A DNA stretch of 64,000 bases from Botryllus schlosseri (GCA_051294905.1 CM119371.1:40736001-40800000); one strand, 5' to 3'; numbered from the stretch's first letter, positions 22,339 through 64,000 are shown. A program made the numbers and translations. The notes: generated by a model from the sequence alone, not told the origin.

Positions 22339-22898
22339 TTGTACAGACAGGCTATAAAAGCACTAGGTACAAGTCTCGAAGACTTATCATCATTTTTTTA
22401 GATTATAATTTATAATCACCAATAATGACGCAACTTTCGTCACGCAAGTGTTTTTCCTAATTCAACAATACTAAATTTCCTTTAAAAAAATTAATATTAA
22501 AATAACTGTTGCAGTGACCGCCACCGAAGTATAGAAAGTAGGTTAATGTGGACATGTAGGCTACATCACAACCTCAAGATTTAACCTATTATGATTTTGA
22601 CTTTGGACTTTGAAGAGCAGGTACAGAAATTTAATATGCGATTGAATAATGTATTCACATTGACATACACCCGATTATTTTTGACTGACACTCCTTAGAA
22701 GTAATCGTCAGCAACTGGAAGAGAATGGAAAAGGACATTTATTATCGACAGTCGTATCACCAAATACACCAACGCGATATTTTCTCGGGTTAGGCTACAC
22801 GTCAAAATTTTCGACTAAATTTTTACAAGTCATAGACGTTAAGCCAGGGTATGGTGAGTATGCTGCATTTACCCTGTATTTTTCAGTAAGCCTATGCG

Positions 22899-30700: not shown

Positions 30701-30866
30701 GGCAGCAATAATAATACTCATCAGTAGTTCCGATAAGATTGAATTGCGGTGTCGTCAGTTTGGTGCACTTCAAATGAGTCCAGTAGTCACAGATATCACA
30801 GCAAATGCAAGGCTGATTTGACTTGCATGGTTTGTTGCAATAGCCACATGGAAATAAGACGGGCAT
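27705..30866 (-). CDS. LINE ORF2: PHD finger + APE endonuclease + reverse transcriptase (1053 aa)
   Basis: N-terminal C4HC3 pattern (CGYC..CICCDIC..WTHLKC..CCQC), EN motifs (NVRSL, ISETRL, GDFNID, SDHLP) and RT motifs (NYRPIS, LDLKKAFD, GVPQGSVLGP, FVDDT). Confidence 0.95.
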   Translation of the reverse strand: MPVLFPCGYCNKPCKSNQPCICCDICDYWTHLKCTKLTTPQFNLIGTTDEYYYCCQCLNSELPFSSLDNMQLTRELSYVKNLSSSDIPKGFYNYYSIEEFNAPTDDSPYITMLHANVRSLPKNSGLVTLLISEFSRHPDILAISETRLSTVLPFDVHIDGYTFINANSPTVVGGVGFYIRNNVQFHITSEFGLNLQGCEDLWIEITLVNKKKRENIIIGAIYRHPHQSMAQFIDAMENCFEKLTLQQKTFYLLGDFNIDLLKSDNKYSVDLSNLISCFSCLSSIKDPTRITHNSRTLIDLIFTNNQVEHQSGILRSDISDHLPTFCKIMNASVGVKHKIAYTRNYRNLSEDNFSNELFDAINDLEVESRTQTDDINNNFSSLINTINSLIEKHAPLRKKTRREMRYANKPWLTSAIRISIATRRKLYKSHFLSGVDSKVELYKNYTNIFTKLKKKSKSNYYKDQFYKNQGDQTKTWGLFNKLFKSTEQKKFPTKISIGNTTVTSELDICKAFNQYFANIGRNLADKHVPTNNYKKYLDKPQQNSTFVQPVVENEVIAIVHSFKNDTATGPDCIPVFILKEIIYTILPILTKLINKCFELGIFHDILKIARVTPVLKKGNPKDLTNYRPISILPIFSKIIEKLILKRLTCFVEKFSIISRKQFGFRERHSTQHAVIDSINNISKNLFSNLSTICIFLDLKKAFDTVDRSILLEKLSHYGVRGNMYKLLQSYLCNRWQFVKNGEVSTDKLEIEMGVPQGSVLGPFLFLIYINDIDNVSDFTIQLFVDDTSLMLSSCNTADLEYSCNANLIKIYDWMCSNRLTINTSKTHCMFFGKGTPKDIVLKLNNERLTFQTSLSYLGIIIDNKLSWGDHINSICIKLSKAIGILRKVRFLLPLSTRLTIYHTLFHSHLTYGVVLWGSAKAKYLNRIKSLQNKAIKLTCLANRRDSVNPLYSRLNILKVEDIHFYEIGKLMHGYYNESLPEIFLDYFTHITSHHSHNTRGSSMNLFLPREHPKTISFQGPRIWNSIPPHIKDKPLHIFKQVFHEYLVGKYEHS

Positions 30867-30906
30867 TTTCTTATCTATTGATCAAGGCTGAATTAGTGGT
30901 TACAGT

Positions 30907-31698
30907 TCATTCTAGGGGGATGCCATACCTTGGCAGATCATCATCACTTCTGATTGTCCAAATTTGGCTTTCGTCGTCCTTTCTCAAGTAGGATACTCCT
31001 TGCCTTGTCCATATGTATTTGAACTTGTTGGCTCTTTTGAATTTTAGGCATGCATTGAATCTTTTTCGGTTAGTCTTCGTAAGGCTCTCATTGATGTATA
31101 TTGTTTCTTTAGTTTTGTGCAGTATTGATCTGCTGTTGTAGATCATGTCACGAACTCTTCTCGAGCAAAATTTGACTATCAAGATAGGATCAGGATAGTC
31201 TTCAGTTGGTTGAGCTAGTCTATGACAAGCACTTATATCGTGCTTTGTGACTGTCACATCTACTTTTTTGGCAACTGACATTACAAGATCTTCAGTACAC
31301 TCCTTCTCGTGGTAGGGTATTCCTTGCAATTCAATGCATTCTCTTCTTCCATATTGCTCCAGATCGTTTATTGCTCTATTGGTCTCTCTGTTGGATGTTT
31401 GGAGGTCGTGTACAATTTTCTTCAGGTAGTTATTTTCCGATTCGACCTTCGACAGTTGCTTGCTCGTAGTATCAAGTTTACCTTTTATCTCCTCATATTT
31501 TTCGTTTAGGAATTCGGCACTCTTTTTGAGTTCTATGATTTCCTTCATGAGTTCAGAGAACTTCTGGCCATTTTGTAGTTTTTGATCATCCATCTTGTCT
31601 GAAAGTGCATCCAGCTTCGATAGTATAGTTCGTAATCCACATTCTTTTTGGACGAGGATCTTTGTGACATTTTCTAGCATCACAGTGCAGCAGTGCAT
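30907..31698 (-). CDS. LINE ORF1: coiled coil + RRM-like / baculovirus FP25K-like C-terminal domain
   Basis: Heptad-rich N-terminal half, then LEQYGRRECIELQGIP, DISACHRL, ILIVKF, IYINESLT, FKYIWTRQG, typical of this ORF1 class. Lies 40 bp upstream of ORF2. Confidence 0.9.
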   Translation of the reverse strand: MHCCTVMLENVTKILVQKECGLRTILSKLDALSDKMDDQKLQNGQKFSELMKEIIELKKSAEFLNEKYEEIKGKLDTTSKQLSKVESENNYLKKIVHDLQTSNRETNRAINDLEQYGRRECIELQGIPYHEKECTEDLVMSVAKKVDVTVTKHDISACHRLAQPTEDYPDPILIVKFCSRRVRDMIYNSRSILHKTKETIYINESLTKTNRKRFNACLKFKRANKFKYIWTRQGVSYLRKDDESQIWTIRSDDDLPRYGIPLE

Positions 31699-31838
31699 AT
31701 AATGATATAAGTTATCAATCTGCTGTATTAGGGCTGGCTATATGCATCTCAATTTCTCATCTGAGATCTGCATCTTATCACAATTAATATCATTATAGAG
31801 CTATCGTTATAAAGCTATGATTTGATGAAGTGACTCAC

Positions 31839-32254
31839 TTGAATTGTATTCTTTATGCACCTTGTGATGATGCCCAACAGCTCATCGTCGATACTGCAGT
31901 TGTTTAAATTCAAAGACCGAAGGCTCTGACTTCTTGCTGCAAGCGATCCAACGACGTGAGCTTGATCGCGACTCAGTGAGATGCGAGATGCTTCGATGAC
32001 GTCAAGACCTTTCATGAGATCGTCGTCGTCTGATTCATAGATCGTTGTGTAAAGCTCCATGAGAGTGCTGCGGTCATCGAAGGCGTCAAGACCTTTCATG
32101 AGCTTGCCGTTGTCTGATACATAGTTCAATGAGCGGAGTAAAACACGAAAACGGTCAGTGGCTTCGTAAATGCCTTCGTTTCTCCCTGCAATCTTCTCGG
32201 GTTGAAGGCAGAGTGATTGCGCCAAAACCTGTTTCTTTTCCGTTCCATCGGAGA
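31839..32254 (-). CDS. Post-NACHT / first LRR exon of the NLR-like gene
   Basis: Acceptor ctcgacacag| in phase 1 (matches the NACHT exon donor), 416 bp open, ribonuclease-inhibitor-type LRR 'SLRSLNLNNCSIDDELLGII', donor CAA|gtgagt. Confidence 0.85.
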
Positions 32255-32357
32255 CTGTGTCGAGACAAGAAATATCAAGGTAACCGTTGACGGCACATCG
32301 TTACGTAACAATTAACAATTGGACGATGTGCGCCGCTACGACAAAACCATGTCCCTC

Positions 32358-39372: not shown

Positions 39373-40735
39373 AATCAAGCCATCCCTGAAGTAACACTCA
39401 ATCCGAACATATTAATTGCAATCACCCAACCGCGTCGGAACCTATCCAACATCGGATGAGTTTTCCACTGATTTGATTGCTATTGCTGCGTCTACCCGTC
39501 TTTCAGGGCCGGTAAGCGGTAGTAGGTCTCAAAAATCGGGCACGGTCTCTTACGAATCGATGTCGTAGTTGCGCTATTCAGACTGCTGTTGTCGACAGTC
39601 GGAGTACTGAAATTGACTTCAAAGACTACCGATGCAGAGATTGAAATCGCTGATTCAGAGATAGGTGAATTTTGTGCGAAAGTCGGAGATTGAGATAAAA
39701 ACAATAAAAGAACGTGGGATGAATGAGGACCATACCAATTAATATAATGGAGAATATCGAATCAACTCAATAATTCGCAGCTCGCAGGCACTCTCAGAAA
39801 TGGGTCGCCAGAATCGCCATTAAACTGTTCCCAGATATGTTGAATAGGGCGGGTGCAGGGTTGCAGGTCAGCAGGTTCTGAGTCATAAGTCAGTCTCACT
39901 TTCACAGTTTTGAATCGAGTCAGGTTGAGTCAGTTTCAAATCACCACCGAGTCAAGTCCTAGTCGGAGTCATGATGTAGGACTGGCATTATATTTTTGTG
40001 GTTGCAAATAGTGTATATATTTCAATTTTCTAGGTCAATTATGGAGTTGTTATTTCAATAATGTGTGATACTCGAATACTTGACTAGACGCCAAATGCGC
40101 GATTCAGAATCGAATCCTTCAGGAAATCGATTTCGATCAGCCCTGATGTTGAGTAAAGTCTGAATTATCTGTAACAATTACAGATGTGTAGCATGAGTAT
40201 CATTGATGATATCTGTAGTGGTTTCTGGATGCGAAGAACTATGTCCGGTTTATGTACATTGCACATGGTTATTAAATAATAAACCACATTCACACAACTT
40301 CAAAGAAAATGAAGCAGCAGCGAAAATATAAAAAGTCAGCGCGGAGGAATTAAATCAAATATCATGGGTTAATACATGATATAAATCGACCTGAATTAAA
40401 TCCGCCTTAAAGATTTAATATCGGAGTGAATGGGGCAATATTGAATATTTTCCAAATACGTAACATTTCTTATAGTGCAACACGTTGTAGATTTTTCCAT
40501 GGTAATGTAAGTAGGCCTACATTGCAGATCATTGATATCACGATGAGCCATTGTTTACTAGGTTGGAGTGAAAACCACATTTTAAATCGAAAGAAGGGTT
40601 CTTAAATCCCGAAAACTTGAATAAAAATTGACATTACGGATGGCCTCCATTTTCCAGCTGGTGACCACTCAATTTCGGCACGCAAGGGGATAAAAATGCA
40701 CATTACAAAACTAAATTAAATATAACATATCTAAC

Positions 40736-42130
40736 CTTTGTAAAGATCGTTTTGTGATTTGGAGAAGACGACGCCTGCCACGAATCGACGCACAACGGAC
40801 CATCGTTCTCCATGGAGATGTTCTTCATCGAAGCGAGAGAACTCGTTGATCTTCATTTCTGTTATAAAAATCGCTGCCAGATATTCTTGAAGGCTTTGAT
40901 GACAGAAAAATAATGTGAAATTCCCTTCCATCAAATGTCGGCTTAGTAGGTTGTTCCCCGGAACTTTAGTCATCAAATCTTGGACTTCATCTGCCGAAAT
41001 TCCAAATTCCTTCAAGACCGTCTCTTTGAACACGACCCGTCCTTCACTCATGCCTCGAAATGCCAATGCCTTCAGTTTGTTGACGATCGATAAAATTTGT
41101 TCCCGATTTCGAATGTTTTCGACGCTCTGTAGAGATGATATGATCCTGTTGTATAGCTCTGTCACCGTTGTTGGAGGAGGTTTATCTGGATCCCTGCCCA
41201 TCACAACTGCCGTTAGAATCAGGAAAACGGGCACAGAGATCAAATTGAGCAATCTTGGTGACATGGTTTCAATTTTCTGCCAGAGCTTCTCACCATTCTC
41301 TTTGAGTAAAAATGCAAATAGCCTATGCGCGTCTTCATACATAAGGCCATTTAGCGTGATGATGGTTTCGGGTCGCGCCATCGCCGGTAACTCTGAAACC
41401 TTGAACTCACGTGAAGCTATGTAGACATTAACGTGACGCAGGATATTCCGGGATAAAATGTTGTGCATGACTGTCCCGCAGCTTGCTTTTTCGTACTGTT
41501 TTATTTTGCGTGGATTTTTCTCAAAATCCCACCTTGTTTGATCAAGCCCGTCAAATATTAGGAGTGCCTCGGATTGATGTTTATCCAGCCATTTGAATGC
41601 CTGATCCTCTTCAAATTCACTTTCGAAGAGCCCTCCAAATAAAAATTTTGATGGTTTAATATCGTCCTTCACTTCAACGTCTTTCAATTCAATATAATGA
41701 ACCATTCTTTTACCGAAAGAGGGCAGATCTTCAAAATGCTCAATTTTCGGGGATGCGCCGAGAGCTCGTCGAGCTATTCTCCGTGTAAGTGTAGATTTTC
41801 CCGATCCTGCAGATGCCACAATAGCGGTTATACCAACTGTTCCTGAAGAGCCTGATTTTTTCTTTTGCCACATGGATGCCACTACGTCATCGATGCCGAT
41901 ATCTTTCGCTTCAATCGTGTCCTTCCGAAGAAATCCAACTTCCTGTGTCAGCTGATTATGGCCATAGCGACCTTTGTAATAATCATCAACGTCAATTTGA
42001 CGCATTTGTGGGTTAACTTCAAAGTCAGGTTGCTGAAGCTTTTCATGTCGAAAATCATCAAGGATATCAATGGCCGTCACTTTCATGGTGTTTTCGTTGC
42101 AAATTTGTACAAACTTTTCCTCGCTAATAT
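40736..42130 (-). CDS. NACHT NTPase exon of an NLR-like protein
   Basis: 1395-bp phase 1-1 exon (tttttcag| ... AAAG|gttag). Walker A ASAGSGKST, Walker B LLIFDGLDQ, sensor IASR, LISVPVFL, LAFRGM and winged-helix FCHQSLQEYLAA are all standard NACHT landmarks. Confidence 0.93.
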
Positions 42131-42764
42131 CTGAAAAATAAGATATGGCAATTATATATATGAATGATAGAGAAAAATTCAAATCTATTCATAGATACAG
42201 TTTGACGAGCAATTGTTGTCATACGGTAAATTGACTGCAGATGCACGCAGGCAATAAGACTTTGTTTGTCAGGACTGGCAATATATAGCTGAAAGGTAAC
42301 ATCCCCAGGAATGATAATGCATTTACGCACAAGGAAAACAATAATTACAGTGGCAGTCGTCCATATTTTCTACGCTAACGCGAATATCAGGTTGGGATAG
42401 CTATTAGTTGTCCGGTATATGAGCATGTGAAATATTGAATACGACACAAAACCTGCTGTAATTGCTTGGTATCACAAGATAAGTTGACTGGCTAAAGAGG
42501 TAATGAGTATTCCTTGTGAAAGAGCGTTCAGTTTGTGTGGAAATATGTTTGTTTATAATAAAATATATTCTGTCATTCCACAAGTTCAAATCGGGGTTTC
42601 TCACACTATTTCACCCGATCCTCCCCTTGCCGCGAACCAGGTATCAACGTCCCCAAACCTGCGACACGATCGTTACCACATCGCTATTTTGAGACTAGAT
42701 TCAGCCTAAAGAAATCGCATAAAACATAGTGAGCATTGAAACAGCGACAGCAAGTATATCCCAC

Positions 42765-45326: not shown

Positions 45327-45712
45327 GTTTGTATTTGTATTTCATCGAACAATTTTTTTGGCCCTTATCGCCGATAAGGTCATTTACGCCCGATCATGTA
45401 TTGTCCATGATTGTCCTTTGCTTTGTCTTTGCTTGTAGTGCGATATTTGCGAACGATTACCAGTCACACTCTTTTCCACTCTCTCACGCCCGAGTCCTCG
45501 TCAGAGTCAGTTGACAGTAACTTTTCGTTAGCTCGACCCTACTTGCTTCATCTGGGCTTCATGCACGACACTGCATATGCACTTTATGCAGTGAGATCAG
45601 AGATGAGGAGTCCAGATAAATGTCCGACCGACACATAGAAGTAGGTCCGAACCGGAATTGGAACCTCTGCCATTGGTGTCGTGACTCTGGTACATAACCA
45701 ACTGTGCCACTT
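45327..45712 (-). mobile_element. tRNA-derived SINE (older copy)
   Basis: The minus-strand head GTGGCACAGTTGGTT...GGTTCCAATTCCGG resembles A and B boxes. The body is homologous to 56480-56600 (GATGAGGAG.CCAGATAAA, GACACATAGAAGT, CCATTGGTGTCGTGAC). Confidence 0.7.
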
Positions 45713-48099
45713 GCTTCCCAGACATCAGACATAATCACAAGTTGTTTATTGGATTACTGACGATGATTACTGGTGCGGTGTGGTTGATAATTATACCAGA
45801 CACACGAACGAGTGACTCTATTCACGCTATAGTTATCATCAAACATTGCATACATTAAGTAAAAGCTAAATCATGTACCATTGTGCGTTGCATCATGCTC
45901 AGACAATATCACGCATTTCTCCGATTAGGCGACCGCGCCATCGGTGTTTTGGCTGGTTCTTGCAAATATTGGAAACTTTCTATTGTAGGTTAAAGTTTCT
46001 GCATGGTTTACCAGTCATATCCACCCTCCACTCGTTTCTACACATCCTGCTGCTTGGTTTTATATCGAAATGCCGAAACAGATAGTTGTGAGGAATTAAT
46101 CGACTCAGCGAATCCATCAGGAGCCTTTCTGATGCAAACTTTATGTGGGGTTTGTAAATATTGGATCATGATTTCCTTCTTATTGCAATCCGGTTTAGTA
46201 TATATTACAGTTTAAATCGTGAATTTAACCACTTAAAATTATCACACCACAATTCACACAATATATTCACGGCCAAACCGTCAAAAAAGTGAATGAATAA
46301 GGTCCCGAGTCTGCCAATGGCCATACTTATAATCTCGCGCTTAAGCGCCACATTTTGAGTTCGACTTCAACCTTACACCGTCCTCAAATACCATAGCCCG
46401 CCAAATATAACTCGAGGGAACACTGAGAGAGCAATAAACATGGTCAAATACCACGTGCTCTACTTGAAAACATTTGCATGCCACTAGATTTGTCCACGTA
46501 GGGTACCAAAGTTTAAGAAACACCGCCTTACATGAAAAACTTCATCAGCATGAATATTGGTTAGTTGAAATACTGATAAGCGAAAAACGAGATTTTCCAC
46601 GAACTTCTTGACTTTTTTAATTCGACTTCACGCGTAATCTCTACGGTTATCCTATACATGCGTTGATGAGACTCATTGCTGCTAATCCATGTATCACCCC
46701 TGTATTCTTCTTATAATTTGCTCAGCATTTATTGTTACTTATTGGCATTTGGACGGAGATAATAAAGTTCGCGGATGCGGGAGAATGCTAATCCTATGAA
46801 TAAATACTTCTAATTGCGACGAGTAAAGTTGGAAAAGGTTACGCACGATGGTTGGCCGAGGTGTCCCGAGTTTTCAATCAAGAGGCGTTATCTGTTGCAT
46901 CATAATGCGAAAACGCGTTATAGGCTGGAAAGTGTCAATTTGTTGAATGAAACAGCAGCCTGCTGAAAACTATTCTGCCACTGCAATAGGTAGAATTATC
47001 ATCACTGCGAAATGAAAGTCGTGTCCAATTCGTACGGTACAGCTAAGAAACGGATTATAGAATGGTGATATCGCTCTGCAATAGCGGGTACATAATTCGT
47101 TGATTGTTTAGTGAAGATATCACCCTCTAGGACAGACCTGGGCAAAGTGCGGCCCGCGGGCCAAATGCGGCCTGCGAAGCTATTCTGTGCGGCCCGCAAA
47201 AGATTGCTTGGAATTCAAAACATAGAACTTGCTTTTCGAATGACTGGCAGGCTGCATCAAATGAAATTCGTTTACTTTGAAGCCTGTCCAAGTGTCCATT
47301 AAAATGCCACGATTACGCCGCCTATACGCACCTCGTGTGAGTTATCCAGATTCAAAACAAAGGCAATGTGGCAGAGTGTGGGTAGCAATTTAAGACACAA
47401 TAAATCACTCTTTCTCTCTCTATATATTTTTAAACCTTCTTTGTTGCCATTGTCACATTATACGCATTCAAATTGTTACGGCATACGTTACCAAATCCCT
47501 AATCTCGCGAATACTGTTATTTGAGTCATCATGTCTATCACCCATGAAGGTTGCGCGGGCATGTGAAAATAAAAAAGCCGAAAAATGAAATTCAAAGAAG
47601 GTTTAGAGAAGTGGTTCCCGACATTTCCGACTCCTCGTTCCCTTATCAAGCTCAACACAAATTTTCGCCCACTTATTTACGGATCCGATATACGGGGTAT
47701 ATCAACGGGTTATTTATTCACCACAATTTGATCGCTGGGCATTTGGCAAAAAAAAGAAAGGTAATTTTTCCGAGTAGGTATTCCGACAACCGGTTTCTGC
47801 GACCGAGTCTACTTTCCATTGAGTTGACCTTATTTTTCGTCAACTTTCCAATCATATGGAGAATTAGCCGTCTTCACTTGCATTTTTGGCCGTGTTCATT
47901 AAATATATCTCACAAGACGTTCTAACATTTTCGTCCTCCGTCGCCCACTTTGGTATTTTCGACCCTTTTATTTTTCAAAATCACCCACGTTAGGAACCAC
48001 TGGTTTAGAGCACCAAATATTTGTATACTGAAGTCAGGGACGAACCAGTCCTTTTTTGCCGAGCATGTCGCCGAAATTAAGGATTTTAATTGAAGTCGG

Positions 48100-50730
48100 A
48101 AGATAATTACTGAACCCACAAGAATAACTGATCAATCCAAAACTCTACTAGATCACTTCTACTGCAACACTCATCAATATCACCTGTCCCCTTTTGTGCT
48201 CCAACACAGTATGACTGATCACTATCCCATCATCTGCCACATGAAATTGGCCCTGCCACATAGTGTTAAAGAATTTGAATCTCGAACGCCCTTAAACCCA
48301 CGCGGTATAGAGGAGTATATTGAAATTGTCAGCAATACCTTCAACAACTACAAAATTCCTCCACTCACAACTGACAACTACAACTGCCATTTTGAAAAAT
48401 TTATTGAGGAACTGCGGGCAGCCCTCGACACATCTTTCCCAATTAGGAAAGTCAACCGCAATGCAAGGCGCTTGAAATCGAAACCCTGGATTGGTCATGA
48501 CATACTAGTTGCAATCAAAACAAGGGATTGGATGCATAAGCACTACTATCTGCAAGGCACCATCGAAGGCAAAAAAGTGTACAAAAAATATGCAAACCAA
48601 GTGACGCATATGAAAGGAAATGCCAAAAAAACATACTTCCAAAAAAGATTCGAAGAGTGCTCCAAAGATCCCAAGAACACATGGAAAACCATTGGAGAAA
48701 TTATCAACCTAACTAAAGGTAATGCTCCCAAGAGTACTGATGACATCGAGCTACTCGAGAATGGCAGCACCATCAAAGACCAGCTTGCAGTAGCAGAAAA
48801 GTTCAATCAGTATTTTTGCAACATTGGTCCGGATCTTGCAGCTTCAATACCAAACTCCTCCGATGACTTTCTCTCGTACTTGAGTCCTGGCCCTCAGAAA
48901 TCCATTTTTCTTGAGCCGACAAGTGAAGGAGAAGTTGCGATCGTATTATCTGAAATGGAAAGTAACAAAGCAGTAGGACCCGATCTCATCCCAACTCACT
49001 TTCTGAAGCTAGTCTTTAATATTATTGGTGATGTTATATGCATTTTCTTTAATGAGTCGATACGTCTAGGCATTTTCCCAGATGCACTGAAAACTGCCAG
49101 AGTAATGCCATTGTTTAAGAAAGGCTGTAAAAAGCTAATTTCTAACTACCGACCAATATCTGTTTTGCCAAATCTTGCCACGGTTTTTGAGAAACTGATT
49201 GACTGCCGACTTAAGAACTTTTTTGAATTGAATGCAGTACTGTCTCCGACCCAGCATGGATTCAGATCCAACCACAACACCAACCATGCAATACTATCAA
49301 TTGTAACGGACTATTACAAAACCATCAAGCAAAAAGAAAGTGGCAGCAGCATTTTTATCGATCTCCGCAAAGCTTTCGACACAGTTAACCACAGAATCTT
49401 AAGATACAAGCTAGAACACTATGGAATCAGGGGTATTGCAGCAACTCTACTTGAAAGCTACCTGGCAAACCGCAAACAATTTGTTAAACTTGGGACATTA
49501 AGAACGACTACCAGAGATATAACTTGTGGAGTGCCACAAGGCTCAGTCATTGGACCGACTTTTTTCTTCATTTATATTAACGACATTGTTAATGCATCTT
49601 TATTCCGCACAACGCTATTTGCTGATGATACTCACCTCTTCATAACCTCCAACACTGTCGATGATTTGCATGCATCTGTGAATAGGGAACTCCCAAAAGT
49701 GTCGAGATGGCTGCAAGCAAACAAACTAAGTTTGAATGCAGATAAGACCGAGATGCTCGTTTTAAATAATGCCAGTCATAATTTCACTGTGAACATCAAT
49801 CATAAACAAATCTCACTATGTGACTCAGCAAAATATCTCGTCGTCACCATTGATTCCAAATTGTCTTGGAAGCAGCATATTGAATGCACAATATCAAAAC
49901 TAGCTCGGTGTGTGGGAATAATGACCCGTCTCCAATCTTTGGTTTCCAGATCAGTACTACGAACCATCTACTTCTCTCTTTTCCACTCGCATCTGCAATA
50001 TGGAATCGTAGTATGGGGAAATGCATGTACAACATTTTTGTGCAGAATTCGAACCCTGCAAAACCGTGCGATACGGCTGATCTCATCTGTACCTTTACGT
50101 ACCAATTTATCGCCTTACTACCGTAAGCATCGAATTTTGCGAGTTGATGAACTGTATCGCTTCGAAGTATCAAAAGTTGTTCACAAATATTTTTCCAATA
50201 GTCTCCCTCCTGTGTTTGATGACTTTTTCATACCTGCTAAACATGTCCATTCCCATTACACGAGATCTTCGTCTAAAGGAAACGTCTACTTACCCCAACC
50301 CAATAGCAACCTAACTAAGAGATCTATCGACTACTCGGGACCTATCATCTGGAATGCATTACCATCACATATCCGTGAATTGCCTTATAATAGATTCAAA
50401 AAAGCCCTACTTGATCACCTCTTGTCGTTACACTAACACTGTTGCCCTACCTCGCCCAGACATTGCTTCATTGATCATTTGCTACCATTGTTTAATTTTT
50501 TTTATATTTTCCTTTCCTAACTAAACATTTTTTCACAGCCAGACTGTTCTGAGTCAAGTGTACCTGTTTGATGCTGGTGTGATCAGACTAGATGACCTTC
50601 ACGGTCTTATCGATCATTCCTATCTAATACCGAATACTGTGCACGCATATTTTCTGTACCACCATCACTGCCGTTTGTTATGTATTTTGGTTCGATGAAA
50701 ATAAAGACTCTCTCTCTCTCTCTCTCTCTC
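48100..50730 (+). mobile_element. 5'-truncated CR1/L2-group LINE
   Basis: Frame opens near 48100 (IITEPTRITDQSKTLLDHF...TDHYPI, end of EN). 3' hairpin TGATC-AGACTAGATGACCTTCACGGTCTTATC-GATCA (50580-50616), AATAAA and a (CT)n tail to 50730. Confidence 0.93.
48196..50436 (+). CDS. LINE ORF2 remnant: end of endonuclease + intact reverse transcriptase
   Basis: KPWI, NYRPIS, QHGFR, IDLRKAFDTV, GVPQGSVIGP, FADDT; 746 aa uninterrupted. Confidence 0.9.
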   Translation: MLQHSMTDHYPIICHMKLALPHSVKEFESRTPLNPRGIEEYIEIVSNTFNNYKIPPLTTDNYNCHFEKFIEELRAALDTSFPIRKVNRNARRLKSKPWIGHDILVAIKTRDWMHKHYYLQGTIEGKKVYKKYANQVTHMKGNAKKTYFQKRFEECSKDPKNTWKTIGEIINLTKGNAPKSTDDIELLENGSTIKDQLAVAEKFNQYFCNIGPDLAASIPNSSDDFLSYLSPGPQKSIFLEPTSEGEVAIVLSEMESNKAVGPDLIPTHFLKLVFNIIGDVICIFFNESIRLGIFPDALKTARVMPLFKKGCKKLISNYRPISVLPNLATVFEKLIDCRLKNFFELNAVLSPTQHGFRSNHNTNHAILSIVTDYYKTIKQKESGSSIFIDLRKAFDTVNHRILRYKLEHYGIRGIAATLLESYLANRKQFVKLGTLRTTTRDITCGVPQGSVIGPTFFFIYINDIVNASLFRTTLFADDTHLFITSNTVDDLHASVNRELPKVSRWLQANKLSLNADKTEMLVLNNASHNFTVNINHKQISLCDSAKYLVVTIDSKLSWKQHIECTISKLARCVGIMTRLQSLVSRSVLRTIYFSLFHSHLQYGIVVWGNACTTFLCRIRTLQNRAIRLISSVPLRTNLSPYYRKHRILRVDELYRFEVSKVVHKYFSNSLPPVFDDFFIPAKHVHSHYTRSSSKGNVYLPQPNSNLTKRSIDYSGPIIWNALPSHIRELPYNRFKKALLDHLLSLH

Positions 50731-51148: not shown

Positions 51149-51728
51149 TTTTAGTGTCTTAATAGAATAACGTAGATGGATAGGGGTTTACAGAGATTTA
51201 AAATTGTATCAGGTTTAACATTGTTTCGAACCATGACGGCAAATACACATTACCTAACATCAACACAACCACCGAGCAGCATTTAATATCAATGTAATTT
51301 AGAAATAAAATCAAAATACGCTGGGGAATATACCTAGAATTTTTCTGTTGGCCCGCCAACGTATTTTCTACTTCTCATTTGGCCCGCGGAGGAAAATAAC
51401 TGCCCACCCCTGCTCTAGGAGACAATCGGCACGGTCATTATCGGGAATAATTGTGCGTATAGGAATGGTTCGCAGTGTACGTCGTTTTTACAGTTGGTTA
51501 TCTATAGTTTGTTCCGTCGAAACGCAGAGCTTACTGGAGTTTCCAATCATTGTATTGATATCATTGGTTCCGGCTTGTTAAATCATGAGATTAACACTGA
51601 CTTTTCTTCGCTGCGACTGGTTTCCTTAATCCTGGGTTGATATATTCTGACGACCGCGATAACTGACTTCATTGATCCAACATAATTATCTCTGATCTTA
51701 GAGTTGAATAAACGGTCATTACACAAAC

Positions 51729-51875
51729 CTTCGTGTACGTCACTGGCTTCTCCCTCCGTGTTGATTATATTGCGAACACCTTTGATTGGGAGGATCTGAT
51801 CTCCAGCCATCACGTTGACAGTGCTATTTATGAAACTTTGTTCCACATTGTCACCTTCAGCCAACGTTGCGGCTC
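51729..51875 (-). CDS. Exon with a RHIM-like motif (GAATLAEGDNVEQSFINSTVNVMAGDQILPIKG...DVHE)
   Basis: Acceptor tttatactag|, 147-bp phase 1-1, donor GAAG|gtttgt. Clear paralogy with exon 42765-42905. Confidence 0.65.
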
Positions 51876-52337
51876 CTAGTATAAACATGATTGTTGTTAT
51901 GCCCGCAAGGATAAGGAAGATGGCATAATAACAAAATACGGTATGTTGAAAACCTTTTCCATCTCTTATTGGCCAATATTTAGTTATGGCTTGTTTGCAG
52001 TCGGATCAAGATTCGATGATTACACATTGCTAATATTAATATTGATGTTGAGTATGCATTCCAATATGACGTGCATTACTAACCGCATGTCTGGGCAGAT
52101 ATTGGTGCAGACATTGCATCGGACACAGCAGAGCTTTGATCTTGATCCTTTGCCGACATGGTATTATTCACTTGATACTAAATTACAGGCGTGTTATACA
52201 ATACTAAAGATAAACGGATAGGAAATACAGAATATCATTAATTTTATTTGTGTAACAGCTCGATACTAAGAATTCCGGTGCATATAAAAATATTTCAGAA
52301 TAGTCATTAGAATTCGAAGTTGTACACATCCCCGTAC

Positions 52338-53177: not shown

Positions 53178-53274
53178 AGCGAGATCGTCGTCGACGAAAT
53201 ATTTGCACAAAATGATAGAGGCATATTCACCGAAACTGTCGATATTGCTATGTCTAACGTCGAATAATTCTGTC
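53178..53274 (-). CDS. Putative exon, death-domain-like (TELFDVRHSNIDSFGEYASIILCKYFVDDDLA)
   Basis: Acceptor atttggctag| in phase 2, strong donor GCT|gtgagt. Joins the upstream exon in frame. Confidence 0.4.
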
Positions 53275-53542
53275 CTAGCCAAATAAGCCCAGTGGTATAC
53301 AGATGCGACCCCCAATATATGTTGGTAAGAGTAACATATTTATTGATAGAATTCTGTCATTACCTTGAAAAAAATTTCGCGTGATCCAGATCGTGAAGCA
53401 ATTATTGAGCTTACGTGTACTATTTCTGCTCGATGCCGGTTTTGGCGGTAGCCACTTAAACTTGTACTTAAATAGAAATTGAAGTCGTTACTTTAATTCC
53501 ATTTGATTTTTAACGAGGACTATCCTGAGCACCTTTAATCAC

Positions 53543-53625
53543 CGACAAAACTTCGTAAACCTTATCCCAATATTATGACAGATTACGCGGACTAGCATCT
53601 CTAAAGTCGTTACATCTTGAGCCAT
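53543..53625 (-). CDS. Putative first coding exon, death-domain-like (MAQDVTTLEMLVRVICHNIGIRFTKFCR)
   Basis: ATG in good context (CAGTATGG). 'ICHNIGIRFTKFCR' resembles the death-domain helix 1-2 pattern IxxxIGxxWxxfxR. Donor CG|gtgatt. Confidence 0.4.
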
Positions 53626-54229
53626 ACTGACATTCTTGAAGTACGCTGCTCACTGACAAGACCGGTACAAATATTTGATTAACAACACGAATGGAGTATC
53701 GAGATTGACAGTGTTGAGTCTTCGGTCATATGCCTCACCAATAGGTATACGCAATATACGACATATGCGCGGAAAAAGCGTCAATCTACCTTACGTAACA
53801 ATCTTAATATTTTTCAAAGCACGGGAAATAAAGACATTCTGTGAGCTATATAATAGGTTCACCACACTTTCACCAAATCATAACAGTTAGTTTACCGAGA
53901 TAGAAACCAGCTGATTTTGAATTACTCACTGCACATGTTGTGTTGACTAAAAAATGCCATCACTTTTGATAGACCCCCGAATCACCTGCTTTTTGACGTT
54001 TCTCTGGTGCTGTTGACTTGAAAAAAAAAGATAAAAACGTCGTCACTGATTCGAATCCCAAATGACTTTCACGAACGTCCACATTGCCTAACGTCCACAA
54101 GGATAGGCTTAATGATTCAAGTGAAGATCTAATAATTTAAAAGCTTATCGACGAAAGTGTTTAAGTGGATTATATTTATTTGCCAAAATGTCCTTTCAAT
54201 TGGAATAATACAAAATGTGAGTAGGTATA

Positions 54230-56240
54230 TAGATCGGTCTGGGGGTGCCTGGGGCTCTTATGGGTGCGGTGGCACGGTGCCGAGAAACTCGTGGTGGCAC
54301 GGTGACCCTTATCTCTTATGGGTGCGGTGGCACGGTGCCATTGTGTCTTATGGCTGTGGTGGCATGGTTACCTTTTCGGGTATAGGCTGCGGCGGCACGG
54401 TGCCGTGAAAACTCGTGGTGGCATGGTTACCTTTTCGGGTATAGGCTGTGGCGGCACGGTGCCGTGAAAACTCGTGGCGGAATGGTTACCTTTTCGGGTA
54501 TAGGCGCGGTGACATGGTGACCTTTCAGGTAGAGATGATTTGACTAACGTTGTGGGTATAGGCGGCGGCGGCACGGTGTTGAATATGTATCAAGTAAATA
54601 GTCACGTGATTGACTCTTAGTTAATCTGTATATCCCAAATTATTATATATGACCGATTCGAGTTAATCCTAACGTTTACGGCGAGTGCGACTTTAATATA
54701 TCGTTATTCTTATGGATGCGGCGATGATTCGTACTTTCGTTTATAGACTGCGGGCGGCATGTCGTACTTTCACCAAAAAAGGGTGTGAAATAGTTTGCTA
54801 AATCTAGGAATCGACCGCATGGTAATGTTTTGGTAATTAGTTTACCACAAAACCGGCGTAGACGGCGATTCGAATACCAACAATAACCGCGTTCACAGAC
54901 TAACACTCCAAAAAGGTGTGAAATATTGGTAAAATCCCGCGATCGCTCACAAGATAATACCTAAGACATAACCATCGCTCGCGACTCGCTGTTACATACA
55001 TGCCGATCGTTGACAATGTAATATTTTGGTAATTAGTTTACCACAGAGCCCGCGTAGACGGCAATACCAACAATAGCCGCGTTCACAAACTAACACTTCA
55101 AAAAGGTGTGAAATAGGTTGCAAATCCCACGATCACTCACGTGATAACACCTAAGACATAGCCATCCCTCACAACTTGTTGTTACATACATTCCAATCGC
55201 CACAATGTAATATTTTGATAATCGGTATGTCACAGGAACTGGATTTCACTGGTAAAATTTAATAAGTAACGAATAACAGAACCGTCGCAGACGATGATTC
55301 GAATACCGACAAATTCTCACTTATTTCTGATCCCACCCTAATCCTTTGCGAAGTTGACGCTTATTCGAAAAGGTGTGAAATAATTGTAAAACCCTACGTC
55401 GCTGACAGGATAATGCATCAGACATAGCGATCTAGTTATAGCACGGGTCGGAATCCATTCGGGTTCTATAGGTAAATTGAGATAATCCGAAACCGAATAT
55501 TTTGACTTTGGCGTAGTGTGAATTGAAATAGGATTGACTAACAAGACTACCAAATTTCAACCCGGTCATATTTAGAAATTATACGCATATTGATTTGAAA
55601 CAAGTAATGAAACCTTACAACTCTATTCACGATCTGGCTTTCTGTTTGTCAAAGAGACATTTTAACATCTTACCATACTCAAAAGAATTATTCATAATAT
55701 CAACCGGTGTTAAAAATATAGTTTTCACTGACTTGATTATACCACTACAACTCGCAAACTTGAATTAATTCATCCTGGTTGTATTCATATGACCGATAAT
55801 TTTTATTCAACTGTAAAGGTCGTTACTACACTGCAAGACAAAGTATTTACTAATCGGTACATATACGACTTGACATAACCTATTACATTTTGAGTATACG
55901 AGATTTGAATGTCTGAACAATAACTGAGAATTAAATGATCACGAGTGAATCCGTATATTACAGCGTAAAAGATGTTGGAATGTCAGCAACTCTGTACGGT
56001 CATAGTTACTACCACTAATTTACCCGGCCAACTCGTCATGATCATTCCTGAAATCTACACAAACATGACCACTGACTAGAGTTAACCACAAAATAGCATC
56101 GAGTTTTAAATCCAGTTGTAGCTTACGTATTATTTGAATGCGGGGTATGTTTTGTTATAATTGGGTGTACGGATAAAGTATTAGGTCTCGACATTTTAAC
56201 ATTTTGCCATACTCAGTCAATCAGGAAAACATTGGCAAGT
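54230..56240. repeat. Left TIR (2011 bp)
   Basis: Begins TAGATCGGTCTGGGGGTGCC and ends GAAAACATTGGCAAGT. Contains GC-rich GGCACGGTG/GGCATGGT repeats and longer AAGGTGTGAAATA-anchored repeats. Confidence 0.95.
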
Positions 56241-56604
56241 TTGTTTGTTTGTTTATTTAACACATACAACAGTGGTGTTCATCGCCTATTAAGGTCATGT
56301 ACACCACGACAATGATATTAGTAATGTTCAGGTTCTTTGCTTTTCGTATTCTTTCCGGACGACTTCCACACTCGCGCGCTTCCAACTTCAGTCTCTCTCT
56401 CTTTCATGCATCCGGACTTTTCTTTACTGCCGACTTCGTACTGGCGCGGCTCACCATCATACTGGGCTTTTTGAGACACTGCTAATGCAGTGAGGTTAGC
56501 GATGAGGAGCCCAGATAAACCTCCGACACATAGAAGTTGGTTCGAACCGGGATTCGAACCACAGCCATTGGTGTCGTGACGCTGGCGCTTAACCAACTTC
56601 TATG
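56241..56604 (-). mobile_element. tRNA-derived SINE at the inner edge of the left TIR
   Basis: B box GGTTCGAATCC (56550-56560, minus strand), A-box-like TGGTTAAGCG, 3' hairpin GTGGTGT...ACACCAC and an AATAAA(CAAA)n tail at 56241-56258. Confidence 0.8.
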
Positions 56605-57339
56605 TATGACATAGTTATCGGGTGTGATCACATTCGATCTACATCAAAACTACCGGCTATGATAATGTCTGTGGATCGAAGGCTTACTCCGCGATGTTTC
56701 TATACCAACACATTGCATGCAATGTCACACACCTCCATTTACGTGTATACTGTTGTGGGCAAACAAGCGCGACGTATGTCTGGATGGTATTTTTTCGTGG
56801 AAACACAGGGTGTAACATGTTTACTTTGAATATTGTTCATTGGTTTATCGATTCAGAGTTGATATCCGGATCCGGTTACGTACTTTATCAGGGTTTCCGA
56901 TTTCAAACTGAATGTCGAGACATACACTGACCAATAAAGACACAATATAGTAAACATGCAGTGGGGAAAACTCGACCTGGAGTTGTTATCACGATGGGTA
57001 ACATAAATCCAACCGTTTTCCGAACACCGTTATCCACATACCAACCATCGTCGAGGAGGTGTTTTATTCAGACATTTTGACTCTGGAAAATCCAAAGCAT
57101 GAACCCGGACATCACAGAACTATCGAAGCCTATTGTCCAATTTTCCGAAACATACATTTCTGTGTACAAGAGTATATTGTATGTGGTTAACCGATGATAT
57201 TGATGTGATACGACCGATGGATGTATAGCCTACTCTGTAACCGGTAGTCCGTGTATATTTCCGTCACTGTTCGTTGTAATCTATTTCAAACTATCGTCAA
57301 TACAACAAATACCAAATTGTCAGGTGTGTTTGTCAGATT

Positions 57340-57990
57340 TCAAAATGAAAATGGTTTTGTTACTCTAGGAAAAGCTAGATGACCAAGAGAAAATTTATTG
57401 TTACACTAGGTAAACGCCGGATCTCCAAAGGAAAATGATATTTTTACTAAGGTAAACGACGACCCGCCAAGTGAAAATGGTTTGTTGCTCAGGGAAAAAA
57501 CATATTTCCAAGTGAAAAAGGTTTGTTACCCAGAGAAAAAATATATTTCCATGCGAAAAAAGGTTTGTTACCCAGAGAAAAAATATATTTCCAAGTGAAA
57601 AAGGTTTGTTACCAAGAGAAAAAATATATTTCCAAGTGAAAAAGGTTTGTTACCAAGAGAAAAAATATATTTCCAAGTGAAAAAGGTTTGTTACCAAGAG
57701 AAAAAATATATTTCCAAGTGAAAAAGGTTTGTTATCCAGGACAAAAATAGATTTCCAAGTGAAAAAGGTTTGTTACCAAGAGAAAAATATATTTCCAAGT
57801 GAAAAAGGTTTGTTATCCAGGACAAAAATAGATTTCCAAGTGAAAAGGGGTTTGTTATCCAGGGCAAAAATATATTTCCAAGTGAAAAGGGGATTGTTAC
57901 ACTGGGTAAACGATAAATCTCCAAAGGACAATGGTATTTTAGTTAGGTGACGGTGGACCTCTAGGTGAAAATGATAATTTTACTTGGGTA
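57340..57990. repeat. Minisatellite of about 41 bp, roughly 15 copies, homogeneous in the centre and degenerate at both edges
   Basis: Unit AAGGTTTGTTACCAAGAGAAAAAATATATTTCCAAGTGAAA starts at 57601, 57642 and 57683. Confidence 0.92.
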
Positions 57991-60809
57991 GGTATCTTGT
58001 GTTCAACGCTGGTAGTGTGATTGGTCTTGTTAAACGTAGTTACCGAGTTGTACAATTATGAAGGGGCGGAAAATGAAATTGCTATTATGATCGTCAGAAG
58101 ATTGTTGTATGTAGATTTGACAGTAACCCTATCATTCGCATATGACAAACACAATCATGGTCATTAACTAACTTGCTCGGTCTAGATCAATGCAAAAGAG
58201 ATGATTCGTTTTTTGAAACCGTAGCGAAGACCACATGTAAATCTATGCGATAGACTTCTATCTCCTTACAGTCAGTCGTGTCGTGTCCATTTTAATACGG
58301 GCCCACATGTATGACATGCACACACTAACACCGTAAACAGATGTCGATGATTTTGACTATTAAAAATATTTCTTGACTACACCGGAATGTCTATGTTGTA
58401 GAAAGTAAATACTATAATGGTGTTGTGTGTTTAATGAAAGCGATTGGTTACAAGTATGTTTTGGGAAATTAAATTTATTTTTCTGTATGTGACAGTTTGC
58501 GAGGAAATGAAAATAGATTCGTGGTTTTAATTTGATTGTGACTGTGTTGTTTTAATGTACGTTTCAACAGGTAGACTTGACACTGAACAACAATTCGACC
58601 CACAAAACATATTCGTTGTATGATTTGTTACTGGTGTGTAAAGGGTTAGGAATATTTTGAATGATAATATCTACTAGCTGTTTTGTTGTGAGAGCGATCA
58701 TGTGATGACTCAGCACTTTTCGTTAGCAAAGTAGATTGATCTATGTGAAAGATGTAAGGACCGTGACTAGAAACATATGTACTTTGTTGTTGGGGTACTG
58801 CTATGGCATTGACATAACCCTCTGGGAGTGAGTATGCTTTTCTTTCACGAAAGTTTACGTGGCTCCGTTGTAATGAATTTGTGTTAACTAAACTCGGATG
58901 GATACCGCAATTGTGCTGGACTTACACATGGTATTCGCATACTGTGCACATATACAAACTTTTGTGTAAACAGCTCTGTGATGTTTCTGTTAGTACTAGT
59001 TCTAGTTCTGTGTTGAACTATTTGATTATTAAGATACATGAACACCCATTCAGACAATAAAGGTCTTGTGATATCGAAACAGTTTGTAGAGTCTAACCAG
59101 CCATTCTTTAGTTTCTTAATGTGAGAATATCGAGTAAAGTTAATTACTTAGTGCGATGTTAATATCCTTCGTACTTTTGTAAGAGTTGTGGGGTAACATA
59201 CAAAGTAACTAATTGACACAAACAAAATGGTGATATTGTGAAGATGATGCCACAACAACACAACAAGTAATATTTTGTATCGGGTGTTTGTACTTTAGGA
59301 ATAGCGGAGTGTGCGATATTTTGGATATGTGTGCACGGTTGTAAACTACGGTTGTTCTTGGGTCTTGCGTCGAGTAAATCATAACTATATCTAGAATTCA
59401 AACACATCCAAGTAAGTTCTTTAGCGACTATGATTACATCTACTTTGACGAGAGGAAATGGAAAAATTCAAATGGATACTACTGACGAACAAAAAGTGCA
59501 AAATGGTTTTATCAGATTTAGGTGTAGGATATCTTTTCGATTTCTTTACCAGAGTGTGTTTTACAAATATTTCTAGTATACCAAAGTATAGGGTACATTT
59601 ATCAAACGTCGTACAAATTGTTTATGCGACGGCAACGACTTTGGGTTACTTGGTTTCGATCCTTTTCTAAAAGATTGTCGGACAATGGTGTTATAATCTT
59701 CTGTAATGATCGAGGTACGTGATCAAGTTTCCAATCAATTAATAATCGGACATATGACTTTGGTTTAACGAATCATAATATTTCTAAAATGCTTGCTGGT
59801 ATCATAAGACACAAATCGAAATTCATATCAATCAAGACCTTTGCATGCTCTGAGTTTTGTGATGGTGTTTATTTCACCTGATAGAAATGAACTTGTATCA
59901 ATAGTAGTACGAAACGCATTTATCATTTTCGGTGTTGGTTGTGTTCCTGATTTCTTTGTTGGTATGCACTCTACAAATAATTTCTGCATACTGAGGTATG
60001 ATGCGTTTGACGAATATCATAGAAATCGTTTTTTGTGTTGGTAATGACTTTGAGTAGTTTGGTTTTATCATTACAATTACTTTAGAAGATTCAAATGATA
60101 ATGCATGATCGCTACTAGCAACAATACAAACACATTTTGTAGATTTCAGTGTAGCACATATTTTGAGCCAGTAAAGATAGTCCAAATTGCTCTTGTGCTG
60201 ATCAAAGTCTTAGAGAGTTTAACCTCGTAATGTTTTACATTTAGCACGTACAACAGCGAGTCACTGAAAGGATTAAGTATTGTTCACCCACTTCGACTGG
60301 TACTCGATGCCAAAAGTGATATTTTCTAATAACCTTTACCACAACATCGGGTCTAATTATCGCGAATAATTTAATAATCAAGTCGTGGTCGGACATTACA
60401 AAATCTCATATATCAAATCAATGTGTCAATCCTTATGTTTACAGTATGATACCTTTCAATGTAACACCGGCGTTTGATTGTAAGAAATGAATTCTCAACT
60501 ACGTTGGTCAGACATTCAAATCCGGTATACTCAAATGTAATATGTTAAGCTCAAGTCCCCTGTACCAAAGAGTAATTACTTTTGTCTTACAAAATATACC
60601 GAGTAATAATTAGTTTGTCTTGCAGAATATACCGCGTAGTAATTCCTCTATCTTACAGAATAGTAACGACTTTTCAAGTTGAATAAAAAAGATGCGTAGG
60701 GATATGAATACAACCGAGCTTGTTATGGATTTTAGGTTTTAGTGATTGTATGGACTCGTGTATGCTTGGCTGACTGCTGGAGTTGGTCGGGTAAGTTACA
60801 AACGGATTT

Positions 60810-62820
60810 ACTTGCCAATGTTTTTCTGATTGACTGAGTATGGCAAAATGTTAAAATGTCGAGACCTAATACTTTATCCGTACACCCAATTATAACAAAA
60901 CATACCCCGCATTCAAATAATACGTAAGCTACAACTGGATTTAAAACTCGATGCTATTTTGTGGTTAACTCTAGTCAGTGGTCATGTTTGTGTAGATTTC
61001 AGGAATGATCATGACGAGTTGGCCGGGTAAATTAGTGGTAGTAACTATGACCGTACAGAGTTGCTGACATTCCAACATCTTTTACGCTGTAATATACGGA
61101 TTCACTCGTGATCATTTAATTCTCAGTTATTGTTCAGACATTCAAATCTCGTTTACTCAAAATGTAATAGGTTATGTCAAGTCGTATATGTACCGATTAG
61201 TAAATACTTTGTCTTGCAGTGTAGTAACGACCTTTACAGTTGAATAAAAATTATCGGTCATATGAATACAACCAGGATGAATTAATTCAAGTTTGCGAGT
61301 TGTAGTGGTATAATCAAGTCAGTGAAAACTATATTTTTAACACCGGTTGATATTATGAATAATTCTTTTGAGTATGGTAAGATGTTAAAATGTCTCTTTG
61401 ACAAACAGAAAGCCAGATCGTGAATAGAGTTGTAAGGTTTCATTACTTGTTTCAAATCAATATGCGTATAATTTCTAAATATGACCGGGTTGAAATTTGG
61501 TAGTCTTGTTAGTCAATCCTATTTCAATTCACACTACGCCAAAGTCAAAATAATCGGTTTCGGATTATCTCAATTTACCTATAGAACCCGAATGGATTTC
61601 GACCCGTGCTATAACTAGATCGCTATGTCTGATGCATTATCCTGTCAGCGACGTAGGGTTTTACAATTATTTCACACCTTTTCGAATAAGCGTCAACTTC
61701 GCAAAGGATTAGGGTGGGATCAGAAATAAGTGAGAATTTGTCGGTATTCGAATCATCGTCTGCAACGGTTCTGTTATTCGTTACTTATTAAATTTTACCA
61801 GTGAAATCCAGTTCCTGTGACATACCGATTATCAAAATATTACATTGTGGCGATTGGAATGTATGTAACAACAAGTTGTGAGGGATGGCTATGTCTTAGG
61901 TGTTATCTCGTGAGTGATCGTGGAATTTGCAACCTATTTCACACCTTTTTGAAGTGTTAGTTTGTGAACGCGGTTATTGTTGGTATTGCCGTCTACGCGG
62001 GCTCTGTGGTAAACTAATTACCAAAATATTACATTGTCAACGATCGGCATGTATGTAACAGCGAGTCGCGAGCGATGGTTATGTCTTAGGTATTATCTTG
62101 TGAGCGATCGCGGGATTTTACCAATATTTCACACCTTTTTGGAGTGTTAGTCTGTGAACGCGGTTATTGTTGGTATTCGAATCGCCGTCTACGCCGGTTT
62201 TGTGGTAAACTAATTACCAAAACATTACCATGCGGTCGATTCCTAGATTTAGCAAACTATTTCACACCCTTTTTTGGTGAAAGTACGACATGCCGCCCGC
62301 AGTCTATAAACGAAAGTACGAATCATCGCCGCATCCATAAGAATAACGATATATTAAAGTCGCACTCGCCGTAAACGTTAGGATTAACTCGAATCGGTCA
62401 TATATAATAATTTGGGATATACAGATTAACTAAGAGTCAATCACGTGACTATTTACTTGATACATATTCAACACCGTGCCGCCGCCGCCTATACCCACAA
62501 CGTTAGTCAAATCATCTCTACCTGAAAGGTCACCATGTCACCGCGCCTATACCCGAAAAGGTAACCATGCCGCCACGAGTTTTCACGGCACCGTGCCGCC
62601 ACAGCCTATACCCGAAAAGGTAACCATGCCACCACGAGTTTTCACGGCACCGTGCCGCCGCAGCCTATACCCGAAAAGGTAACCATGCCACCACAGCCAT
62701 AAGACACAATGGCACCGTGCCACCGCACCCATAAGAGATAAGGGTCACCGTGCCACCACGAGTTTCTCGGCACCGTGCCACCGCACCCATAAGAGCCCCA
62801 GGCACCCCCAGACCGATTTA
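60810..62820. repeat. Right TIR (2011 bp)
   Basis: Begins ACTTGCCAATGTTTT and ends GGCACCCCCAGACCGATTTA. Confidence 0.95.
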
Positions 62821-63657
62821 TATAACTACTAATGTGTTCCGATATCAATATTTAAAATGCATTTCTTCACCTGAATACTGCGTTAAGACGAACGGTATTG
62901 GTAATAGTCGAAGGAAGTCTGATAACTGATAATGACGAAACGTGAGTTATCTACGAAGGGGCTGTGTTCAACAATGCCCAAATTGCCCATGTTTTACACA
63001 CATTAGTGTTATAATAGATTTTTCGGTGATTCATTTTATAGTGTGACAAATTTCCAAAAAATTGGATTTAATTGAACTCATTTTGTTGCAAGCCCATTTT
63101 ATTCTATGTTTCATACAGTCGTGAAGCAATGACATAGTGGCGACCCTGGTCTCCAGTATGGTGTTATGATAGCGAGAGACGCTATCGATTTCTAGTTGTG
63201 CATATTCTCCTTATTTAATAGGTCGAAGCGGGACCTACGATATCGTAGGCCCCGGTCGAAGAATTAATTATTGGTATTGACGTGAATTTGGATGAGTTGA
63301 AACTTTACATTGTGAAATTTGTAAATGCAAATCGAAGTTTTTTTCTTCTAATTTTGTGATGGCACGAGCTCAATACCGCTAACCTATACAGCGCCCGTTC
63401 AAGCGGATGCAACGTAGTTGTCTAATGAATGGGACATCGACCTTCATTCCGTCATACTGAGTAGAGTGCAAACATATGCTGTGTTTCCAGAGTGCACAGT
63501 TACGTTTGGTGTTTGCAAGATCGCGAGTGAAACGTGTTCAACCGCAAAGCAATTAATTTCGGATTTGTTAGTCGTGTAAGCATTTGATTAATGCCATTTC
63601 GTGACAGGTGCCAACTTTACGGACGAATAGGTTTAAATTATTTTTGATTCTAACAGT

Positions 63658-63731
63658 TCATCATTGGTTTATTAGCAATTTTTATCAGTTCAATACACCA
63701 CAAAAATGCGATACAATGAAAAGACAGGAAG
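63658..63731 (-). mobile_element. 74-bp extreme 3' fragment of the LINE family at 2192-4012
   Basis: Nearly identical to 2202-2275 (TCATCATTGGTTTATTAGCAA...GAAAAGACAGGAAG). Confidence 0.9.
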
Positions 63732-64000
63732 TTTATATCTCAATTTTCATGACAAAAAGTGCGTGAGAGAAAACCAGAATTTTACTATGAACGTCCCTTC
63801 GTAAATTATTTCTGTGGTTCGGAGTCATTTCAGGATTGGGTATGGAAGGCAAGCAGACACACTGACGAAATATGCGGATTACATAAGTAGTCACCACGCT
63901 GATCGGTTATTTGGTAGCATTTTACACCCAGATCTTAAACCATAGATTTAGCGCGAACGTTCGCCTTTTGTATGCCAACCGCCATGATGTTCGGAAAACA

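Follow-up and report, generated by a model that had tools for sequence, protein, structure and literature searches.

The window, as we call the whole 64,000-nucleotide stretch of DNA that was analysed, contains an element of 8611 bp (54220-62830) with two long inverted arms, Maverick (Polinton)-type ends and a 6-bp target-site duplication (TSD), and this element is very probably Maverick-derived. We lean towards the reading that it is a helper-dependent palindromic Maverick satellite, a larger palindrome from which the loop and the inner two thirds of the left arm would have been deleted at a SINE. The 8.6-kb copy is probably a damaged member of its family.

The limits of the element were set by a base-by-base comparison of the arms in the window, in which the inverted pair that dominates the output of a repeat search has its centre in the interval first proposed (54230-62820). 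The left arm (54220-56240, plus strand) and the right arm (60810-62830, minus strand) are 2021 bp each and, with one of them inverted, align without gaps and with 11 mismatches (0.54%); the inverted repeat makes up 47% of the element. The equal, near-identical arms of the original prediction were thus confirmed, and their length was corrected from 2011 bp, since the identity runs 10 bp further outward. Arm matching is 9 of 10 at 54220-54229 and drops to 14 of 30 positions further outward and to 12 of 30 past the inner end. The termini are therefore not TAG...TTA, as had been proposed, but AGTAG...CTACT: the left arm starts with AGTAGG, one change from (AGT)2, and the right arm ends with ACTACT, an exact (ACT)2 motif. 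The 12-base terminal word is present in the window at the two ends of the element only.

A perfect 6-bp direct repeat, AATGTG, flanks these limits at one locus, with its left copy at 54214-54219 and its right copy at 62831-62836 (both plus strand). Each of the 40 symmetric boundaries between 54205 and 54244 was examined for a flanking direct repeat, and five (54219, 54220, 54230, 54231 and 54232) had one of at least 4 bp. The AATGTG boundary, 54220/62830, coincides with the limit of arm identity, and the probability of a 6-bp match by chance at any given boundary is about 3e-4. The 4-bp repeat at boundary 54219 is a shadow of the 54220 site, and boundaries 54230, 54231 and 54232 are TA-palindromes within the arm. 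The apparent 6-bp duplication at 54232/62818, TATATA, was discarded, being palindromic and within the arm. The TATA sequence that had been taken for the TSD is likewise self-reverse-complementary and only mimics a duplication because it lies at mirror positions inside the arms. A palindromic word within a terminal inverted repeat (TIR) can pass for a TSD, which calls for caution.

The arms are internally repetitive. In the left arm, GC-rich subterminal repeats of 59/32 bp lie at about 54255-54590, and a 190-bp tandem pair occupies 54822-55222. The subterminal 350 bp (54233-54580 and its mirror), in which the 59/32-bp repeats lie, have 58% GC versus 37%, and the motif around AAAAAGGTGTGAAATA occurs there four times per arm. 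The CpG observed/expected ratio is 1.29 in the arm versus 1.0 elsewhere. Judged from their sequence, the subterminal GC-rich repeats are candidate protein-binding sites.

The assignment to Mavericks follows from the TSD and the terminal motif together, which are the criteria of Repbase for non-autonomous elements (PMC4455052), the one on termini being that bases 1-11 align, with 1 mismatch, to those of another member. In the parts of the literature that describe these features, vertebrate Mavericks have 6-bp TSDs and 5'-(AGT)2//(ACT)2-3' as their commonest end motif (PMC8097293), and the Polinton TSD is given as 6 bp (PMC10045372, PMC4196379) or as a range of 5-8 bp (bioRxiv 10.1101/2023.08.22.554363). 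AATGTG lies on both sides of the single locus, and of the two Maverick end motifs, (AGT)2//(ACT)2 and (AG)3//(CT)3, the former is matched exactly on the right and at five of six positions on the left. The single-base deviation at the left end counts against the Maverick reading. With its 6-bp TSD, the TSD length of the superfamily, and its ends compared with the published 6-bp motif, the element would be filed under the Repbase rule as a non-autonomous Polinton/Maverick derivative. It is neither an autonomous Polinton nor an Academ. An autonomous Maverick has a length of 13-25 kb and genes for pPolB, integrase, ATPase, protease and capsid, and here there are 8.6 kb with none of these genes detected. 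The likeness to Mavericks and Polintons as they are described in part in PMC8097293 and PMC3014272 lies in the 6-bp TSD, the (AGT)2//(ACT)2 ends and, less clearly, the long TIRs, and the difference lies in size, since the elements described there are 12.7-24.6 kb long with TIRs of 46-1447 bp. The 2021-bp TIR is above the Polinton range of about 100-1500 bp and near the TIRs of about 2 kb of butterfly Polintons.

Ginger TSDs are 4-5 bp long. Academ elements resemble the present one as TIR DNA transposons, but they were ruled out by TSD length, which is 3-4 bp for AcademX and 9-10 bp for AcademH in the relevant part of PMC10045372. IS3EU/GingerRoot elements share TIRs and a 6-bp TSD with it and were rejected on their terminal bases, TA..TA or TG..CA in the same source, as against AG..CT here. 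The original prediction had offered an Academ-like element or a linear virus-like element; the second option agrees with the Maverick ends and the 6-bp TSD, and the first does not. It had also set Polintons aside for having 6-bp TSDs and AG...CT ends, which is exactly the signature found here. Repbase lists some non-autonomous Polinton families.

No recognisable transposase had been seen in the element, and our searches agree, as Pfam and PHROGs name nothing on the read-through frames. The longest stop-free frame in the element is 103 aa. The Pfam scan of 12 frames from the core and arm, read through with X, gave one match (E 0.1, below the cut-off), and the PHROGs scan of six core frames read in the same way gave none. 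The Pfam library did recognise the LINE and NACHT ORFs of the window, which are intact, and is thereby controlled for intact genes and not for decayed ones. Known Mavericks carry core genes, and none was detected in these 8.6 kb. In 57990-60809 there are 13 stop-free frames of at least 60 aa; Markov controls average 6.1, and none of 300 reached 13. The longest frame there, also 103 aa, is not unusual. An old decayed gene in this segment is possible: the earlier description of the core as decayed coding-like DNA is weakly favoured by the excess of frames but finds nothing in the ordinary longest frame and in the homology searches. Protein searches gave no significant match for the minus frame 56907-57229, or for two of the minus frames in 57990-60809, which were compared with proteins of up to about 515 aa. 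A third minus frame of 57990-60809 gave two matches among 1.84 billion representatives. One is a 39-aa fragment with 95% identity on one 3.7-kb contig, which we read as another copy of the family rather than as a sign of a gene. The second is a repetitive protein. For the plus strand of the core, the frames were covered by the Pfam and PHROGs scans only, except that one 100-aa frame was searched further. Two frames of about 100 aa fell in the Atlas into unnamed hypothetical clusters only (0.92 and 0.79), which were not counted as evidence, and Rfam gave one chance-level match. A tblastn search of viral contigs with a 51-aa frame had 0 of 46 matches confirmed, and scans for the exact terminal and subterminal motifs gave none in viral contigs and none in JGI metagenome contigs. 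A single match to the motif in a prokaryote genome agrees over a 24-bp word only and was dismissed as chance.

To judge abundance we used sequencing runs. Part of 53200-60809 was present in 21 of the 24 runs listed; seawater and other runs with 0.17-0.28 of the words were set aside as evidence. Contig depth was obtained on 57950-64000 from four runs of four studies, X1 (which may be the assembly's own sample), X16, X6 and X5. Over the element the depth is 3e4-3e5 in X1 and 2e4-3e5 in X16, compared with 20-90 in most flank bins, and it collapses in the bin containing 62830. Relative to the median of four flank bins the arm is 2693-fold deeper in X1, 1840-fold in X16 and 8017-fold in X6; in X5 the flank has a depth of 0. 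The element thus belongs to a very high-copy family, of the order of a thousand by summed contig depth, which differs from copy number and is read only to that order. Since the depth is about a thousandfold or more over that of the flank, a single-locus duplication or an assembly artefact, either of which would have spoken against the original prediction, is excluded by the four runs. Its description as a recently mobile, multi-copy, non-autonomous derivative of a large element is upheld. In the right flank, 63658-63731 is a short repeat that is itself very high-copy (depth 5e5-6e5 in X1 and X16) and has 97% identity over 75 bp to 2202-2275. Mavericks have a median of 8 and a maximum of 287 copies per vertebrate genome in the counts given in PMC8097293, and the present family seems far more abundant. 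We found no paper on a very abundant gene-less Maverick-ended family in the open-licence literature. The section of PMC3014272 on the anole Polinton describes non-autonomous copies as apparently absent, as opposed to the gene-less copy found here. Butterfly Polintons, in the portion of bioRxiv 10.1101/2025.02.07.637071 that concerns them, are alike in their TIRs of about 2 kb and in polB-less derivatives with LINE/LTR cargo; their TIRs encode hexon and protease and other genes are kept, whereas arms and core here are without a recognisable gene.

Between the arms, the left side of the core is a 5'-truncated tRNA-type SINE with an (AAAC)n tail (56239-56605, minus strand), whose A and B boxes were read directly from the sequence. 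As noted earlier, the core does hold a SINE; another copy, at 45586-45703, is 83% identical to it across 118 bp, and ARAGORN gives no tRNA gene. The (AAAC)n tail adjoins the inner end of the left arm exactly, with 2 nt of microhomology, and no TSD of at least 7 bp was found around 56239-56605. At the 5' junction of the SINE there is a 7-nt inversion (56599-56605) whose template lies in the SINE itself. Within 56528-56605, a perfect inverted repeat of 15 bp pairs this junction with an internal SINE segment and exceeds the A/B-box complementarity by 7 bases; its sequence suggests a template switch at insertion. The rest of the core (56606-60809) is continuous with the right arm and has no gene identified. 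It includes the predicted 41-bp minisatellite, a 41/42-bp array with degenerate edges at 57341-57980 and a main array of 10.5 copies with 90% matches at 57467-57900. A second 42-bp minisatellite in the window, at 11533-11817, is unrelated to it. Older direct duplicates (about 78%, plus strand) of 61118-61273 in the right arm occupy 60490-60715 and straddle the apparent TIR boundary, tying the core to the right arm, and it is on these duplicates that the continuity of arm and core rests. Residual inverted homology within the core does not go beyond 15-16 bp.

Depth along the core was then compared with that of the arm. Both arms stack onto the one arm in 57950-64000, and therefore a unique core between 2-kb TIRs would have 0.5 of the arm depth. 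The core/arm ratio is 1.87, 1.29, 1.28 and 1.28 in the four runs at 57950-59161 and 1.28, 1.12, 1.07 and 1.04 at 60374-60777, so that these two segments behave like arm sequence. At 59162-60373 it is 0.50, 0.30, 0.32 and 0.32, values that fit a unique core and a variable insert equally and do not discriminate between them; a 342-bp skip, 59935-60278, is present in all four runs. For the whole core within 57950-60809, three runs have a ratio of 0.84 and the fourth has 1.2, and the depth in the four runs identifies 57950-60809 as high-copy family sequence. No loose end or joint was seen at 60810 among the best 24 of 2328 loose ends and the best 15 of 226 joints.

The variants of the family bear on how the two arms came to be so similar. 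Among the best 40 of 554 variants, 18 lie in the arm, and at 14 of these 18 sites both arms have the same letter. At seven of the 14, another letter takes at least 86% of the family depth in both X1 and X16, and at 61320 the letter of the arms is nearly absent elsewhere (the other letter has 43099.5 of 43106.5 in X1). Because such rare variants are common to both arms, the arms appear to have been templated from one another after their lineage left the family majority. The remaining four of the 18 sites are arm mismatches at which the alternative family letter is that of the left arm (near-fixed at three, mixed at one), and hence it is the right arm that changed. The arms have since drifted without full correction, with 11 differences, 4 of them assignable to the right arm. 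The common rare variants point to joint copying before insertion as their source. The original prediction had proposed active homogenisation of the arms beside a decayed core, which is not needed, as core and arms are equally high in copy number and 11 differences were left uncorrected. Joint copying in a protein-primed, racket-like replication could explain arm identity with no continuing homogenisation; the identity may also stem from gene conversion at the locus. Polinton replication by protein priming on a racket-like intermediate is a proposed model in the section of PMC4196379 that deals with it, and the Maverick end repeats are said to serve jumping-back priming in that of PMC8097293.

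In the sequence of events that we propose, the protein-primed polymerase of a helper Maverick would start at the (AGT)2 ends, so that the arms would be templated together and acquire common lineage-specific variants, and the retrovirus-like integrase of the helper would then insert the copy with a 6-bp duplication. A SINE would have inserted 2021 bp into the left arm and deleted roughly 4-5 kb, the remainder being 2021 bp, the SINE and 6225 bp of right arm, the length of the sequence right of the SINE; afterwards the arms would have drifted apart to 0.54%. Mobilisation in trans by a complete Maverick, which we infer, is likely. Deletion from a palindrome, in which the present left arm would be the truncated remainder of a longer one, is favoured by the left arm stopping exactly at the SINE tail and the right arm running on into the core. 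A deletion at a retroelement insertion has a precedent among the cases presented in PMC4229983.

We weighed this reading against three others. The element could belong to a non-autonomous Maverick family of its own, normally about 8 kb long with TIRs of 2 kb, produced by internal deletion or TIR expansion and mobile in this form with or without the SINE. The ends and the TSD would be the same, Polintons with TIRs of about 2 kb exist according to the part of bioRxiv 10.1101/2025.02.07.637071 that covers them, and 59162-60373 has 0.3-0.5 of the arm depth, as such a core should. Two core segments are nevertheless at or above arm depth in all four runs, half of the junctions should diverge at 60810 and none of the best-supported ones does, and it would take a coincidence for a TIR to end exactly at the tail of a SINE. 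We regard such a family as unlikely, though it is the strongest of the three alternatives.

It is improbable that the element is a foldback derivative from some other cut-and-paste superfamily that makes 6-bp TSDs (IS3EU/GingerRoot), or from an unclassified one, with AGT-repeat ends by chance. The passages cited above show that IS3EU/GingerRoot makes 6-bp TSDs (PMC10045372), internally repetitive long TIRs are presented as typical of foldback elements such as Galileo in PMC3573991, and no Polinton gene remnant links this copy to Mavericks; its AG..CT ends with an exact (ACT)2 are set against the TA..TA or TG..CA of IS3EU/GingerRoot. Least credible of all, and very improbable, is an Academ-like element with a TATA duplication or, alternatively, an inverted duplication confined to one locus or an artefact of assembly. 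There is indeed a TATA on either side of 54230-62820, but it is palindromic and inside arms that agree for 10 bp more, and a perfect 6-bp duplication stands at the true end. The arms also show 11 differences, which a path duplicated in assembly would not, and a single locus is at odds with the high copy number in four runs from four studies.

Under the palindromic-satellite reading we tentatively suggest a gene-less Maverick satellite at the order of a thousand copies, with arms re-synchronised at each copying (a nearly private variant is in both), a hairpin that can be reduced with its ends intact, and an 8.6-kb SINE form that may still move. If this were true, satellites would carry SINEs as cargo and would offer a natural read-out for the panhandle model of Polinton replication, which is untested. 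The abundance of a gene-less Maverick-ended family points to efficient complementation in trans. Arm pairs record jointly copied versus post-insertion variants, and hence genome data alone would be enough to test the replication model. The 8.6-kb copy matters mainly as a deletion variant, which could show whether mobility needs the full hairpin.

Several other features were observed in the window. About 2.2 kb to the left of the insertion, 51583-52005 (minus strand) is a 140-aa frame with a hydrophobic segment and no Pfam match; from its sequence it is possibly a host membrane-protein exon. A 485-aa NACHT/winged-helix exon of an NLR-like gene lies at 40731-42188 (minus strand), and further downstream of it a 161-aa frame (31815-32300, minus strand) is LRR-like by eye, with no Pfam match. 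Judged by the NACHT exon and the LINEs of the window, the host is an animal. An apparently intact non-LTR retrotransposon occupies 27705-31737 (minus strand), with an ORF1 of 276 aa that has a Baculo_FP_2nd domain and an ORF2 of 1058 aa with endonuclease and RT. LINE-like RT sequences were also found as a 780-aa ORF (RVT_1) at 48094-50436 (plus strand) and as a putative copy at 2437-4022 (minus strand) split into frames of 265 and 278 aa. The nested inverted-repeat element at 12733-14898 ends in TAGGG...CCCTA and is flanked by an 8-bp duplication that has one mismatch; we take it to be hAT-like, and it has short relatives at about 17240-17840 and 21700-25650.
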